From a virus, in UHGV virus genome UHGV-0069955: a stretch of 12,124 nucleotides of DNA. One strand, given 5' to 3'. Under the pieces are notes generated by a model, which was given only the letters and a program-made list of their open reading frames with translations, searched no databases and was not told where the DNA came from. This document shows, piece by piece, positions 614 through 7,694 of this stretch. Positions within the stretch are counted from its first letter, which is position 1. Each line of letters opens with the position of its first letter. The position numbers were made by a program, and so were the translations under genes.

Positions 614-1204
614 TCACTGGTCGCCTCCTTTGCGAAGCTGGTCGGCGAACAAACGTACACTAGACGCTTCACTGCGTAGAAACTTAACGGCATAATCAAA
701 ACCACCTCGTTCTGCGTCGTCTGCTCCGTTGTCGAGGTTATCTGCGTACATCTCTACCCCCTGCGCCCGCACTTCAGCCAGGAAAGCATCGGTGGTTGGG
801 GTTTCTGGAATGGCGTCTGGAATAACCTCTGAGTAGACGCGTTCCATTGCCGACTCCCATCCGTAGTAACAAGCCGAATAGCCGTCGCGCTGGTAGCCGT
901 GGTCTTCAACTCCACATCCCATGCCCTGGTCATGGTATTCAGGCTGATTGTCGGGATTAATGCAGTATTCAATGACCGACTTCATCCCCGCATTCTCCGC
1001 TGCCAGCGCAGTGCACTTGGCCTCAAGGTTATCAATCGTGATTCCAGCAGAAAGACACTCCCGCAACGCCGTTTCCAGTTTTGATTCAAGTTCACCGAAC
1101 TTACGGACAAGATATTCAGCGTTTGTTTCGTTAACATTTAAATCTCGGGGGATGCATTTACCTTTCAGAAAACCATTCATCTCAATTAGTGACATTTGTT
1201 TCAT
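614..1204 (-). CDS. Hypothetical early accessory protein (196 aa from ATG at 1204; ORF track extends to a GTG at 1222)
   Basis: Long ORF. The ATG at 1204 forms an ATGA overlap with the stop of the upstream small ORF (1201-1203). No motif I recognise; acidic C-terminal half. Confidence 0.5.
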
Positions 1205-1365
1205 TTCTTCCCACTCCGCCACATAGCATTCAGATATTTGTTGTCATTAACAGAGCCGAAACTATTTCTCTTAAGCAATTCCTCTCTCGATGGCATTGGC
1301 TTTACGCGTTGGCGAATAATCATTTCTGCCGGAAGAATGCCGGGATTGTATGCAAGTCCTCTCAT
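1201..1365 (-). CDS. Small hypothetical protein (54 aa from ATG at 1365; in-frame alternative ATG at 1383)
   Basis: GAGGAA Shine-Dalgarno 8 nt upstream of the ATG at 1365. The frame is open back to 1518 but that stretch overlaps the 98-aa gene. Stop overlaps the start of the downstream gene (ATGA). Confidence 0.3.
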
Positions 1366-1375
1366 GGTAAATTCC

Positions 1376-1672
1376 TCAGTCATTACTGATAGCGCCATAG
1401 CGTGAGCGGTAATTACGCAGGCGCGGGTCGATATATTCAGGGAAGTGGGTATATGTTGCTTTGCGGAATGGTCGGATTGATGTCTGGTAAATTCGCTCGC
1501 GTTCTTCTTTCTCTGCAAGCCATATACAGTGGCGAAATTCCTTTTCCTCTTTCGTTTCCTGCGGTAGCGACATTATCCGATCGTAGTTTTTTCTGAATTT
1601 ATCCAGCACCTCCGATACGGAATTGCCGGAACAGCGGCGCGCGTCATCCGCACCATACAAAGGCGCTGGCAT
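1376..1672 (-). CDS. Hypothetical protein, 98 aa
   Basis: ATG at 1672 preceded by an AGGAG Shine-Dalgarno; begins 14 nt after the stop of the upstream HNH gene. Charged/basic protein with no recognisable catalytic motif. Confidence 0.5.
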
Positions 1673-1685
1673 GATTTTCTCCTGA

Positions 1686-2165
1686 TTAAATTGCGTGAAT
1701 AGCGTGACGAGGGAAGGGGAGAGTTACTGGTTCCTCGTCTGGGTAGATAGGTTTGTTATGTTTGTGCCACTCGACATGGCATGACTTGCAGAGCCACATC
1801 ACATCGGTTGGTTTGCTGTAGTCGCAGTGGTGCGCCTGTGGTTTACATTCTGATCCGCAGCACTCACATTGTGGTGGTCGGATTAGCTTACCGTCGCGCA
1901 AAAAATTACCCACGATGATGTGGGCTTTTCTTTTCCATGGGTTGCTCTGAATGAACCGCTTTTTGGCTGCGTTACACCGTCCTCTGCCGCGTTCCGATGA
2001 TTGATATTCTCTCCTTGCTGATACTCGATGTGGCAATCCCGCGCGCTCTTTGTCGTATTCAGCCAGGCAAGCCCGGCAAGCGGCAGTTAATCCATCTCTG
2101 GATGCTCTTCTGATTTGAAAGTCCCTTTCTTCCTTCTGTTGATGGCATCTTGAGCAGATTTTCAT
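1686..2165 (-). CDS. HNH-family endonuclease with N-terminal Cys-rich (zinc-ribbon-like) region, 159 aa
   Basis: C-terminal ...AHHCDYSKPTDVMWLCKSCHVEWHKH fits the HNH motif (HH...D...LC..CH..H). N-terminal CSRCH...CRAC Cys pairs. AGGAG Shine-Dalgarno overlaps the SSB stop codon. Confidence 0.6.
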   Translation of the reverse strand: MKICSRCHQQKEERDFQIRRASRDGLTAACRACLAEYDKERAGLPHRVSARREYQSSERGRGRCNAAKKRFIQSNPWKRKAHIIVGNFLRDGKLIRPPQCECCGSECKPQAHHCDYSKPTDVMWLCKSCHVEWHKHNKPIYPDEEPVTLPFPRHAIHAI

Positions 2166-2174
2166 ATTCAGCTC

Positions 2175-2648
2175 CTAGAACGGAATATCCGAATCGTCGA
2201 AGTTCATAGGTGGTTCGCTGTGATTTCCATGCTGCTGAGGTTGCTGTCTTTGTTGCTGACCGTTATTTCGCTGAGGTGAAGACTGTTCATTGCCTCCTTG
2301 CTTGCCACCAAGCATTTGCATGGTTCCACCAACGCCCACGATGACTTCGGTAGTGAACCTATCCTGTCCGCTTTGATCCTGCCATTTTCTTGTCCGTAAT
2401 TTGCCTTCAAGATAAACCTCAGAGCCTTTTCGCAGATATTCGCTGGCAATTTCTGCCAGTTTCCCGCTCATTACCACACGGTGCCACTCCGTCTGCTCCT
2501 TTTGCTCTCCAGTTTGCTTATCACGCCATTGTTCTGACGTAGCAACTGTAAGGTTTGCAAATGCCGTTCCTGATGGTGAGTATCGAACTTCCGGGTCTTG
2601 TCCTACCCGACCAAGGATAATCACCTTATTTATCCCGCGAGAACTCAT
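2175..2648 (-). CDS. ssb: Single-stranded DNA-binding protein (SSB), 157 aa from ATG at 2648
   Basis: [27 protein letters not shown]...TEWHRVV...Gly/Gln-rich linker...C-terminal acidic tail DDSDIPF is the classic bacterial/phage SSB OB-fold and tail. The ATG overlaps the upstream HNH stop (ATGA). ORF track's 2657 start is an upstream GTG. Confidence 0.9.
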
Positions 2649-3112
2649 TTGCTCCACCTCTTGCCAGTTTTTATGTTGCTTATAATTGATTGAGATACAC
2701 CCATGTCTTTTGCTATCTTGTACTGACTCTCTTTTTCAGAGAGTCTTTTCCTAATTTCTATAACCTGCCACTCTGTTAATTTTGCACCATGATGAGCATG
2801 ACCTTTCTTGGCTCCACGATGCCTTCCTTTTGCTATCTTGTCGTCCATGTTTTCTTGCGCGCTACCTAAAAAGAGATGTTCAGGATTAACGCAGCATGGG
2901 TTATCGCATTTGTGGCAAACCATCTTCCCAGATGGAATGGGGGAGTGATAAAGCTCAAAAGCAACACGATGAGAAAGCATTGTTACGCCAAAGGCTACAA
3001 ATTTTGTGTATCCTCCTTTGTTTTTTGAATAGGTAGACTCCCAGCAACCTGTTGTTTCATTAACTTTGTAGCTGGACTCGAATCTTTTAATAATTCCGTC
3101 CAAGTGAGACAT
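2645..3112 (-). CDS. HNH endonuclease (HNH_3-type) with C-terminal helix-turn-helix, homing-endonuclease-like, 155 aa
   Basis: [17 protein letters not shown]...[12 protein letters not shown]...[26 protein letters not shown] is the HNH_3 signature. C-terminal [42 protein letters not shown] looks like an HTH. ATG directly follows the SSAP stop (TAAATG). Confidence 0.75.
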
Positions 3113-3820
3113 TTATGCCGCCTGTTTTAGTTCGTTAACTCTGATGTTCATTACCTGAACGCATTTAGCCTGCGCCTCCTCGTTGCCAGCCATTAATTGC
3201 CAGTCACGCTGATAACGCTCGATGAGTTTTTTCTTGTCAGTTTCTGTTGACGCATAATCGCTGAAGTCTTTCAGGATTTGTTCGCAGTCAACCGATGGAG
3301 ATTTCTGGTTGGTATTTTCTGGTGATGGTTTGTTATCTGATGCTGGGATTGCCCATCCAGGCAGCGATGGAGGGAGCCAGTAAAATCCTGTTCCATCCTT
3401 CAGTTTTGCCCTGTGCCACCCCTGCTTTTTATCGAGAGATGTTTGTGCAAAACCTTCCTCAAGGTTATACAGATACCGACCGATTCCCCACTGAACGGCA
3501 GCACGCTTCATTGCACCTGAACGACCACCTTTGACGGCTTCTACCTGCGTGTTTTCAGCAGCATCCCATTTGGTTACCCATTCGGAATCAATCTTGATTG
3601 ATATGCCGCATTCAACTCCGCCGTTGTTGGGAATATCGCGGTATTCATTGCGCCATCCTGCTTTGCCGCAAACATCGTCCAGGCGTTTCATGATTGCCCG
3701 GTTCGTGACATAAGCCAGCACCATAGCCCACACCTTGCCATCGCGTGTTTTACCGCTTTGCTGTATTCGCCATTCGATATCTTCAGGGCTGAATGGCTCA
3801 TCGAATTTGTTCAAATCCAT
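3113..3820 (-). CDS. Rad52-like single-strand annealing protein (phage recombinase, Sak-like), 235 aa
   Basis: ...GISIKIDSEWVTKWDAAENTQVEAVKGGRSGAMKRAAVQWGIGRYLYNLEEGF carries the KRAAV.(F/W)GIGRYLY hallmark I associate with phage Rad52/22-family SSAPs. Sits where lambda has bet. GAGGTG Shine-Dalgarno. Confidence 0.7.
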   Translation of the reverse strand: MDLNKFDEPFSPEDIEWRIQQSGKTRDGKVWAMVLAYVTNRAIMKRLDDVCGKAGWRNEYRDIPNNGGVECGISIKIDSEWVTKWDAAENTQVEAVKGGRSGAMKRAAVQWGIGRYLYNLEEGFAQTSLDKKQGWHRAKLKDGTGFYWLPPSLPGWAIPASDNKPSPENTNQKSPSVDCEQILKDFSDYASTETDKKKLIERYQRDWQLMAGNEEAQAKCVQVMNIRVNELKQAA

Positions 3821-4570: not shown

Positions 4571-5194
4571 CTATGCGGACTCGGAAGGAAGTCCAATCAT
4601 CTTATTCAAATCTTCTACCCGTAAAGCAGGAAGTGCTGTACTTGCTTTGTCTGCTTCTTTTGGTAGCAATTCTTTGCTTTCAGGCCAAACTTCAATAAGT
4701 CGCTTAACTGTTGTGACTGAGTTCAAAGCAGCCCATACATTTGATTCGATATCCTTTTTCTTGGCTTCAAGTTTTTGTTGCAATGCGCAGATTTCATCAA
4801 ACCTTTTTGTTATTTCGTGTTCTGCATCAAACATGCATTTATCTTTGGTTGGAGTAGGGAGCAATATATCTTCGCCGTTGCCGTCTTTCCCATATGAATG
4901 CCATCCAACCCTTCTGCCAGATACAGTCAGATAAATTGAAGTAGAACGAACATCGTATGAGTAAAATGAACATCCCATCTTTTCAAGTTCTTCACTTATA
5001 GCTACTAACCTGGATGATAACTGATCCACTTCCTCAGTTTTCTTTTTACCGCCAAACGCAATAACTCTGGCGTCAAGTGCAAGCTGGTTCTTTAACTTTG
5101 TTACTTCTTCAAGTTCAGTGAAAACCCCAGACTTAATTAAAGCGTTACGAGCGATTTTCTCTTTCATTCTCGTAGTTAAGCGGATTGATGACAT
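4571..5194 (-). CDS. Hypothetical low-GC accessory (moron) protein, 207 aa from ATG at 5194
   Basis: Strong GAGAGGAA Shine-Dalgarno 5 nt upstream of the ATG at 5194 (track's 5209 start is TTG). Visibly AT-rich relative to the lambda-like flanks. Translation MSSIRLTTRMKEKIARNALIKSG... is Lys/Glu-rich with no motif I recognise. Confidence 0.6.
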   Translation of the reverse strand: MSSIRLTTRMKEKIARNALIKSGVFTELEEVTKLKNQLALDARVIAFGGKKKTEEVDQLSSRLVAISEELEKMGCSFYSYDVRSTSIYLTVSGRRVGWHSYGKDGNGEDILLPTPTKDKCMFDAEHEITKRFDEICALQQKLEAKKKDIESNVWAALNSVTTVKRLIEVWPESKELLPKEADKASTALPALRVEDLNKMIGLPSESA

Positions 5195-5251
5195 ATTAAT
5201 TCCTCTCAAATAAGTGGTTTGCTGCGAAAGTAAATACGCTTAAGTTACCTG

Positions 5252-5397: not shown

Positions 5398-5730
5398 TCA
5401 ATCGTAATAAGCTGGAATTGATTTTCCGCGTTGCTTCTGGCGACCAACACAAGTCACACCCATTTCACTGCGTGGCTTGCTGTACCATGTGCGCTGATTC
5501 TTGCGTTCAATACGTTGCAGGTTGCTTTCAATCTGTTCGTGGTATTCAGCCAGCACCGTAAGGTCTATCGGATTCAGTGCGCTTTCTACTCGTGATTTCG
5601 GTTTGCGATTCAGCGAGAGAATAGGGCGGTTAACTGGTTTTGCGCTTACCCCAACCAACAGGGGATTTGCTGCTTTCCATTGAGCCTGTTTCTCTGCGCG
5701 ACGTTCGCGGCGGCGTGCTTGTGCATCCAT
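5398..5730 (-). CDS. N: Antitermination protein N (lambda-type), 110 aa from ATG at 5730
   Basis: MDAQARRRERRAEKQAQWKAANPLLVGVSAKPVNRPILSLNRKPKSRVESALNPIDLTVLAEYHEQIESNLQRIERKNQRTWYSKP... is near-identical to lambda N as I recall it, including the Arg-rich boxB-binding motif. AGGAG Shine-Dalgarno upstream. Track's 5820 start is an upstream extension. Confidence 0.92.
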   Translation of the reverse strand: MDAQARRRERRAEKQAQWKAANPLLVGVSAKPVNRPILSLNRKPKSRVESALNPIDLTVLAEYHEQIESNLQRIERKNQRTWYSKPRSEMGVTCVGRQKQRGKSIPAYYD

Positions 5731-5840
5731 CTGGATTCTCCTGTCAGTTAGCTTTGAGTAACGCGCCGTGATGCTTATCTCCACGGTTGCTGTCTTGCAG
5801 CTGCATTTCGCGCTACTCAAAGCTTTCTGCTTTGAATGCC

Positions 5841-6977: not shown

Positions 6978-7694
<717 letters not shown>

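Follow-up and report, generated by a model that had tools for sequence, protein, structure and literature searches.

The recombination module of virus genome UHGV-0069955, of which a stretch of 12,124 nucleotides was analyzed (hereafter the window), raises the question of why a gene for a small HNH-type protein should stand between ssb, the gene of the protein that binds single-stranded DNA (SSB), and the anti-RecBCD gene abc2: does it belong to the recombination machinery, or is it an optional element with a niche of its own? The open reading frame (ORF), which encodes 159 amino acids (aa), lies on the minus strand directly downstream of ssb, exactly as described in an earlier note drawn up from the sequence of the window. 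That note left the choice between a selfish homing element and a dedicated role in recombination or in attack on host DNA. The former is favored here: the product of the ORF is probably a zinc-ribbon HNH endonuclease of the homing type, whose free-standing gene lacks a promoter of its own and is carried as a 447-bp cassette at the end of ssb. A role in recombination, and still more one in attack on host DNA or competitors, appears less probable.

The gene itself (gene 26 of phage Sf6) and its kind, the free-standing HNH endonuclease, are already known; no description of its embedding in ssb with a borrowed tail, or of the near-universal placement of its family behind SSB tip codons, was found in the literature. 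Many of the mosaic boundaries of phage genomes are marked by optional nuclease genes, but a defined target is known for few of these. The HNH family described here, widespread and for the most part unannotated, shows one sharply defined niche, the end of ssb. It offers a concrete region in which a target can be tested for and, in Sf6 and in coliphages that carry or lack the cassette, a simple system for the measurement of homing among temperate phages.

Structure of the cassette and its borrowed tail

Alignment of genomes carrying and lacking the gene revealed that the cassette stands in place of one Ala codon (GCG/GCA) of cassette-free phages. In the latter, ssb runs past its canonical tip and ends in …DDDIPF-A-PVTLPFPRHAIHAI, whereas ssb of the carriers ends in …DSDIPF and the endonuclease ORF ends in …YPDEE-PVTLPFPRHAIHAI, encoded by identical DNA. 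The final 14 codons of the endonuclease and its stop codon therefore correspond to the DNA with which ssb ends in phages that lack the cassette. This sharing accounts for a puzzling remark in the Sf6 record, according to which gp26 has “14 contiguous amino acids identical to SSB”. The borrowed tail is the low-confidence part of the AlphaFold2 (AF2) model, with a predicted local distance difference test score (pLDDT) of 50-70, and homologues of 82-85% identity found at other loci have different tails.

Four arrangements of the region were distinguished, i.e. ssb-abc2 (ECP1, HK75), ssb-exo-abc2 (mEp235), ssb-endo-abc2 (Sf6, IME10 and the window) and ssb-endo-exo-abc2 (Bas106), where endo is the endonuclease gene and exo an exonuclease gene. 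A second allele of the endonuclease (allele 2; P0022, phage Huey), sharing 47% identity with the first, occupies the same junction behind a different type of ssb. Its DNA is identical to that of allele 1 from CCAGACGAGGAA/CCAGTAAC onwards, so both alleles have the same borrowed tail.

The sense strand at the junction of ssb and the ORF reads GATATTCCGTTC TAG GAG CTGAAT ATG. As the earlier note had remarked, the Shine-Dalgarno sequence (AGGAG) overlaps the ssb stop codon; it is separated from the endonuclease ATG by 6 nt. To judge from this arrangement, the endonuclease is probably translationally coupled to ssb and lacks a promoter of its own. A promoter and terminator scan of positions 1200-3300 gave no signal above chance.

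In cassette-free lambdoid phages, the SSB proteins carry a 15-residue extension, APVTLPFPRHAIHAI, behind the DDDIPF tip (ECP1, locus L003, 687-1202; mEp235, locus L005, 1247-1753; about 45 of 80 loci). This extension should bury the terminal Phe that is normally bound by host partners, which raises the question whether the extended SSBs can still recruit host proteins via the tip. Diverged versions of the extension occur in more distant phages within the 80-locus ssb set (SPVTLPFPRHTIHVI and APIGLQHPAHFIYSI), and show only that it is old.

Presence, absence and linkage of the cassette

The presence/absence polymorphism that the earlier note had proposed to look for is evident, with exact boundaries, in 5,426 complete Escherichia coli genomes. 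The cassette (allele 1) is present in 98-99 of these, always with at least 95% identity, and allele 2 in 10, while a direct, empty ssb-abc2 junction was found in 275. The endonuclease gene is absent from most otherwise near-identical recombination modules and thus does not behave as a stable component of them. It co-occurs with the other HNH gene of the operon, located between erf and ssb, in only two genomes, and the two encoded proteins share no detectable similarity (BLASTP E=1.8). In the earlier note, two distinct HNH nucleases in one early operon were called unusual.

The linkage between the cassette and the form of the ssb tail was analyzed in 80 ssb loci from IMG/VR (L022-L101), in which the association is perfect. 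Behind every ssb ending in …DDSDIPF (24 loci) the endonuclease gene begins 9-10 nt downstream, and it is absent behind every ssb with the 15-codon extension APVTLPFPRHAIHAI (about 45 loci). Three loci in which ssb ends in …DDEIPF contain an HNH_3-type gene instead, as in phage ES18, where this unrelated gene occupies the same junction.

Comparison of 23 carrier and 42 non-carrier ssb genes revealed near-fixed differences in six columns only, all within the last 27 nt of the gene (columns 466-486 of 492). They comprise a D/E-to-N codon, an extra TCG codon and a synonymous Ile change. Over the first 390 columns the differences in allele frequency are low (0.05-0.16), so the linkage to the cassette is lost over a few dozen bases. 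Short co-conversion tracts, or changes conferring immunity on a target site, would be expected to leave such a pattern. We regard the last 27 nt of ssb as a candidate region for such homing target or immunity changes. Two features by which homing endonucleases are recognized, presence or absence at one exact site and a linked variant tract or footprint, were thus found at this locus.

Position of the family behind SSB tip codons

Members of the endonuclease family were identified in 532 phage records and in more than 587 viral contigs, of which the loci of the 80 best matches were inspected. A search with a hidden Markov model (HMM) built from five SSBs detected a same-strand SSB gene directly upstream in 34 of 72 viral loci. 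In the remaining loci, almost all of the upstream ORFs proved on inspection to end in an SSB tip, e.g. …DEEIPF, …FDDQIPF or …GEDIPF. The upstream genes span several SSB families, including PHROG 743, 7364 and 9002 (DUF669).

The association was quantified by asking whether an upstream same-strand ORF ends in [ILVM][PG][FW] directly before the stop codon, or in that tip plus 1-16 residues. The tip itself was found close to the endonuclease start in 63 of 78 IMG/VR loci, and ten further loci have the tip plus 1-16 residues (73/78 together); the background frequency was one in 1,696 other frames. In species-representative bacterial genomes, 27 of the 29 full-length copies with an HMM score of at least 125 follow an SSB tip, while weaker or domain-only matches show no such placement. 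The hosts of the high-scoring copies belong to many phyla and range from Enterobacteria and Psychrobacter to cyanobacteria, Campylobacterota, Planctomycetota, Bacteroidota and Saccharibacteria. Cultured phages agree with this picture: Vibrio phages D60, K66 and K121, Klebsiella phages IME279 and K54_rec2, Pseudomonas phage KIL3b and coliphage mEp021.

Two loci carry repeated tip codons. In L180 (2930-3510) they are found on both sides of the endonuclease gene (…GACATCCCGTTTTAG … AACATCCCATTTTAA), so that the endonuclease ORF itself ends in …NIPF. In L156 an imperfect, out-of-frame second copy of the DIPF codons (GATATTCCTTTC) directly follows the ssb stop codon; a hairpin and a T-run lie between this copy and the endonuclease ATG. 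These repeats look like the direct-repeat footprints of insertion events.

A few relatives are placed elsewhere. In Staphylococcus (I-KsaII), Enterococcus and Bacillus myoviruses the DNA polymerase I gene is split and a homologue lies between its parts, the relatives in Herelleviridae lying within such split polymerase genes, and in Cronobacter phage GAP31 a homologue was found between helicase and polymerase genes. The intervening sequences of the polymerase genes have been described as group I introns (PMC5618024). An Rfam scan of the window and of the polA region of phage K-like genomes returned no intron model at the gathering score.

Conservation and predicted fold of the endonuclease

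Disruption of the ORF in close relatives, named in the earlier note among the observations that would speak against its proposal, was not seen: the ORF is intact in every close copy examined. Differences among close copies are mostly synonymous (dN/dS of 0.05-0.13), and a dN/dS of 0.08 was obtained in comparison with an 82%-identical homologue from a Cronobacter prophage (47 synonymous and 27 non-synonymous differences). This is a real gene under strong purifying selection, and not a chance ORF. Composition gives no hint that the gene was imported recently, its GC content (approximately 50%) being equal to that of the flanking DNA; the GC content of the HNH gene between erf and ssb is lower (40-42%). 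One substitution is private to the copy in the window: codon 62 (1980-1982), which lies in the helical linker of the protein, encodes Gly in place of the Glu found in Sf6, Bas106, IME10 and two E. coli prophage copies (E62G).

The gene is frequently overlooked in annotations. RefSeq/PGAP has no feature over the ORF in E. coli among the 40 matches listed, the ORF is uncalled in the GenBank records of IME10 and mEp021 (L185, 1483-1950), and allele 2 is mostly labelled as a hypothetical protein.

In the AF2 model of the full-length protein (pLDDT 93) an N-terminal zinc ribbon, a three-helix linker and an HNH nuclease domain can be distinguished. The ribbon is modelled with high confidence (pLDDT 98) as two beta hairpins and a helix. 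Its four Cys residues (C4, C7, C30, C33) are invariant or nearly so across the homologues, and profile comparison related it weakly to the N-terminal Zn ribbon of PacI, an HNH restriction enzyme. The Cys-rich N-terminus and the HH...D...LCKSCH..WH motif reported in the earlier note are both borne out: C100/C103, H112-H113, D115, C126/C129-H130 and W133-H134 are all present. In two alignments, of 44 and 56 homologues, no variation was seen at C100, C103, H112, H113, Y116, C126 or H130, at least 90% of the sequences have H134, and D115 and C129 are at least nearly invariant, C129 being replaced by His in some members.

The two pairs C100-x2-C103 and C126-x2-C129 bracket the motif in the manner of a [CxxC]2 zinc site and presumably make up the structural zinc site of the domain. 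H112-H113, D115, H130 and H134 are active-site candidates, to which individual roles may be given by analogy. The predicted structure contains, at residues 110-136, the beta-beta-alpha-metal element of HNH/His-Me finger nucleases, with conserved residues in the places of the general-base His (end of strand 1) and of the metal-ligand His/Asn on the helix; the predicted fold is HNH-like.

Assignment by profile, which the earlier note had proposed as a check, succeeded in part. The protein matches PHROG 2340 (“endonuclease”) with E=8.6e-47, residues 1-143 covering positions 8-169 of the 171-position profile; Pfam and NCBIfam scans of the protein gave no match, to an HNH family or otherwise. A Foldseek comparison with the PDB returned no match below E=0.5, and an hhalign comparison revealed no relation to T7 gp2.8, which falls in HNH_3-type PHROGs. 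One homologue, P0071, has a precomputed match to PF27269.1, an entry that was never returned by the Pfam scans made here; this group may already be included in a recent family of Pfam.

Proposed mode of spread and rival explanations

A homing-type endonuclease that has the 3′ end of ssb as its niche is the most economical reading of these data. The cassette would supply ssb with a stop codon right after the …DIPF tip, together with a ribosome-binding site (RBS) overlapping that stop, and the former 3′ end of ssb would continue the endonuclease reading frame. Given this overlap and the in-frame tail, the endonuclease would be made from the early-left (pL) transcript through coupling to ssb, and the RBS of abc2 would stay intact. 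In a cell also holding a related cassette-free phage or prophage, the enzyme could nick or cut near the end of the cassette-free ssb (…ATGGAkTTTGACGACGATATACCyTTT/GCr CCAGTAAC…). Repair copied from the carrier genome would then transfer the cassette along with approximately 27 nt of variant ssb sequence, plausibly assisted by the neighboring Erf, SSB and Abc2 functions, and the transferred tract would protect the carrier. The data show the association with SSB tips, the polymorphism, the purifying selection and the anatomy of the cassette; nuclease action, its site on the DNA and a bias in inheritance are inferred. Nuclease genes have been observed more generally to mark the boundaries of exchange between phages (PMC10448857), and the present pattern agrees with this.

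Extended to the whole family, homing would suggest an ancient zinc-ribbon HNH lineage that lands on SSB-tip codons (…D-D-[IL]-P-F-stop) and has spread through phages of many bacterial phyla. Each cassette would bring a replacement tip and stop codon and leave the old 3′ codons behind, either incorporated at the end of its own ORF or visible as a duplicated footprint, with reshaped SSB C-termini as a side effect (e.g. the 15-residue extension, in 275 of 5,426 E. coli genomes). No feature of these otherwise unrelated phage SSB genes is better conserved than the C-terminal tip. We offer this wider proposal tentatively, since we find it nearly as easy to doubt as to accept, with doubt slightly ahead.

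Several points weigh against homing, in the lambdoid phages or in the family as a whole. Cleavage, a target site and biased inheritance have been demonstrated for no family member. Curated HNH profiles of Pfam and NCBIfam match none of the approximately 100 members scanned, the best results being 0.68 for HNH and 0.028 for HNH_2, and otherwise weak zinc-ribbon or DUF6510 noise. Sequence searches of the PDB (phmmer and profile) were only sub-significant (PacI 0.45, T5 SciA 0.5-0.9), and hhalign revealed no relation to HK97 gp74. What SSB genes of different families and phyla have in common is the protein sequence of the tip and not its DNA, so that the association as a whole is beyond the reach of a single conserved DNA target. 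The viral sample, confined to the 80 best of more than 587 matches, is biased towards relatives of the query. The lambdoid event itself could have been either an insertion into an extended ssb or a deletion that left a 14-codon scar; the GCG/GCA codon at the junction matches neither side of the cassette. Finally, purifying selection and tight packing in a recombination module would also fit a useful phage gene.

The last point leads to the main rival, in which the endonuclease serves the lambdoid recombination module as one of its functional parts, making or processing DNA ends for annealing by Erf on SSB-coated DNA, complementing RecBCD modified by Abc2, and in which its gene stays beside ssb since the two proteins act together. 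Tight packing and translational coupling within erf-ssb-abc2 and the strong purifying selection speak for such a function, and it could also account for the proximity to SSB genes throughout the family. In a 2025 survey of lambdoid Rec modules, HNH genes contiguous with a module, that of ES18 among them, are taken as likely members of it, with a caution on their mobility (PMC12315714), and the present results bear on how such genes are to be read. Against it, near-identical modules exist with and without the gene, the empty junction being the more common (275 versus approximately 99 carrier genomes), and unrelated nuclease genes replace the endonuclease at the same point. Differences linked to the cassette do not reach beyond 27 nt at the junction, placement is almost always directly 3′ of the tip codons, with duplication footprints, and relatives are found in polymerase intervening sequences with no SSB gene nearby. 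We consider a module nuclease unlikely.

More doubtful still is an accessory nuclease or weapon that is recruited by the SSB tip, or acts on SSB-bound DNA, and damages host DNA or excludes competing phages and prophages, its spread being a by-product. The association with a protein-level tip motif across non-homologous SSB families, early expression from pL and the short-site nickase activity of zinc-ribbon HNH enzymes (PMC3592412), which fits broad rather than single-site action, are all compatible with it. However, nothing points to a surface that binds SSB; an enzyme of this kind would not need to be encoded beside a phage ssb, as the tip is shared by the host SSB; and exact placement behind the stop codon with borrowed or duplicated tip codons is a signature of insertion, not of interaction. 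We attach the least credence, and very little of it, to an inactive relic, i.e. a once-mobile endonuclease gene that is now passive cargo. Chimeric and truncated derivatives do occur (P0011, P0014, P0053, P0023) and RefSeq leaves the gene unannotated, but all examined full-length copies are intact, their catalytic and zinc residues are invariant, and the dN/dS values given above, at close range and at 82% identity alike, are low.

Comparison with known systems

The closest known counterpart is the protein of Sf6 gene 26 (NP_958202), which is 99.4% identical and is likewise encoded between ssb and abc2. It shows no difference of substance from the endonuclease of the window; the E62G change is private to the latter, and Sf6 lacks the HNH_3 gene. 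Sf6 gp26, allele 2 and I-KsaII all belong to PHROG 2340. I-KsaII, of the polA gene of Staphylococcus phage K-like genomes, is a full-length homologue (34% identity, E=2e-28) with the same layout of ribbon, helices and HNH domain. It differs in lying inside a split DNA polymerase gene and not after ssb, and is itself a putative endonuclease.

The free-standing endonucleases of phage T4 are promoter-less cassettes expressed from host transcripts, and one of them, SegG, targets the SSB gene 32 (PMC2988022). The cassette described here resembles the T4 seg/mob genes, and SegG in particular, in the lack of a promoter, the orientation shared with its neighbors, expression from a host transcript, its optional presence and its location by a gene of DNA metabolism (SSB); short flanking tracts co-inherited with the gene are a further likeness to SegG. 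In contrast, SegG is a GIY-YIG and not a zinc-ribbon HNH enzyme, its gene is located upstream of the SSB gene and not at the 3′ end, and its ORF is not fused to old 3′ codons of the target. Moreover, activity and homing of SegG are proven, whereas the endonuclease of the window is known from sequence and predicted structure.

Zinc-ribbon HNH enzymes of phages and prophages that have been characterized biochemically are short-site nickases (Xu and Gupta 2013, PMC3592412). They combine an HNH core containing a [CxxC]2 zinc site with an extra zinc ribbon, as predicted here, and the predicted domain superposes on those of Gme HNH (4h9d), GVE2 HNH (5h0o), T5 SciA (9qgx) and PacI (3m7k). These enzymes differ in being encoded next to cos/terminase genes, or in being restriction or nicking enzymes; their classic HNH Asn is replaced by Asp/Glu in the present family (…PxDVxWLC), and the sequence similarity is below significance.

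ES18 gp47 and T7 gp2.8 share the same niche, directly after the SSB gene stop codon. Both differ in belonging to an unrelated nuclease family (phrog_59/1872, Pfam HNH_3) and in having no borrowed tail, and the gene of ES18 gp47 has AT-rich flanks of its own. The genes in question abut the stop codons of their SSB genes in T7 (gene 2.8 after gene 2.5; L182, 858-1277) and in ES18 (gene 47; L020, 676-1197), and a corresponding arrangement is reported for an N4-like Achromobacter phage (PMC3915230). The end of the SSB gene may thus be a general hot spot for nuclease genes.

Genetic setting, neighboring inserts and derivatives

The window comprises the early genes of a lambdoid phage or prophage of Enterobacteria that resembles P22 and Sf6 (Table 1). 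Its closest cultured relatives are Sf6, N7, IME10 and several coliphages, with patchy identity of 95-98%. The order of genes around the cassette is erf – HNH_3 gene – ssb – endonuclease ORF – abc2, so that the endonuclease gene is contiguous with those encoding the single-strand annealing protein (SAP), SSB and anti-RecBCD protein.

Table 1. Features of the window, with positions numbered from its first nucleotide
Feature	Position	Strand	Basis or remark
Endonuclease ORF, 159 aa, Sf6 gp26 type, PHROG 2340	1686-2165	minus	ATG 2165-2163, TAA 1688-1686
ssb stop codon TAG overlapping endonuclease Shine-Dalgarno AGGAG	2172-2177	minus	stop 2177-2175, AGGAG 2176-2172
Optional cassette, 447 bp: ssb stop TAG, RBS and endonuclease codons 1-145	1731-2177	minus	comparison of carrier with non-carrier genomes
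Borrowed tail: codons 146-159 (PVTLPFPRHAIHAI) and TAA	1686-1730	minus	junction comparison with ECP1, mEp235, Sf6 and Bas106
Last 27 nt of ssb: cassette-linked variant tract	2178-2204	minus	23 carrier versus 42 non-carrier ssb genes
N-terminal zinc ribbon, aa 1-42 (C4, C7, C30, C33), presumed DNA-binding module	2040-2165	minus	AF2
Three-helix linker, aa 45-91	1893-2033	minus	AF2, helices 45-56, 58-74 and 76-91
Predicted HNH (beta-beta-alpha-metal) nuclease domain, aa 96-136	1758-1880	minus	
abc2 (anti-RecBCD)	1376-1672	minus	Pfam Anti-RecBCD_p2 4e-61; RBS after shared tail
ssb, 157 aa, ending in canonical tip DSDIPF	2175-2648	minus	Pfam SSB 3e-38; ATG at 2648
HNH_3 and C-terminal helix-turn-helix (HTH) nuclease gene	2645-3112	minus	Pfam HNH_3 1e-13; between erf stop and ssb ATG
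Erf, Rad52-type	3113-3820	minus	
Small cIII/kil-type ORFs		minus	early-left operon
Nmad5-domain gene	4571-5209	minus	early-left operon
N	5398-5820	minus	early-left operon
cI	6978-7691		right of early-left operon
cro, cII, O-like gene, DnaB-type helicase gene, ninB			right of early-left operon

The HNH_3 gene is an exact optional insert as well: its ATG directly follows the erf stop codon and its TGA overlaps the ATG of ssb (ATGA), while erf and ssb abut in Sf6 and most relatives, which lack it. It was found in 40-41 of the 5,426 E. coli genomes with at least 99% identity, and it is independent of the cassette, being present without it in L100 and L101. Another optional insert, a gene encoding a DnaQ-like 3′-5′ exonuclease (PF16473), occurs in mEp235, Bas106 and epsilon34-type phages (690-1238 in both L005 and L004) and starts 9 nt past the stop codon of the shared tail. 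Three different optional nuclease genes thus cluster within the erf-ssb-abc2 block.

Several ORFs appear to be decay products of these genes. P0011 and P0014 are ssb::endonuclease fusions, in which the N-terminus of SSB is joined to the HNH domain of the endonuclease, in P0014 at a common IVG; in P0053 the endonuclease N-terminus is joined to the C-terminus of the exonuclease; and P0023 is a frameshifted copy. In P0058, from Citrobacter, the N-terminal zinc ribbon is combined with a different C-terminal region containing an HTH_psq domain. The chimeric ORFs look like products of deletion and domain swapping.

The gene between N and the kil/cIII region encodes a protein of 212 aa with a full-length match to nucleotide modification associated domain 5 (Nmad5, E=4e-72); the counterpart position in Sf6 is occupied by a different gene (gp33). 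Alignment further revealed that ssb of the window is itself a mosaic, in which the first approximately 80 nt (2570-2648) correspond to the allele of L009 and mEp235, and the remainder is of the Sf6/ECP1 type.

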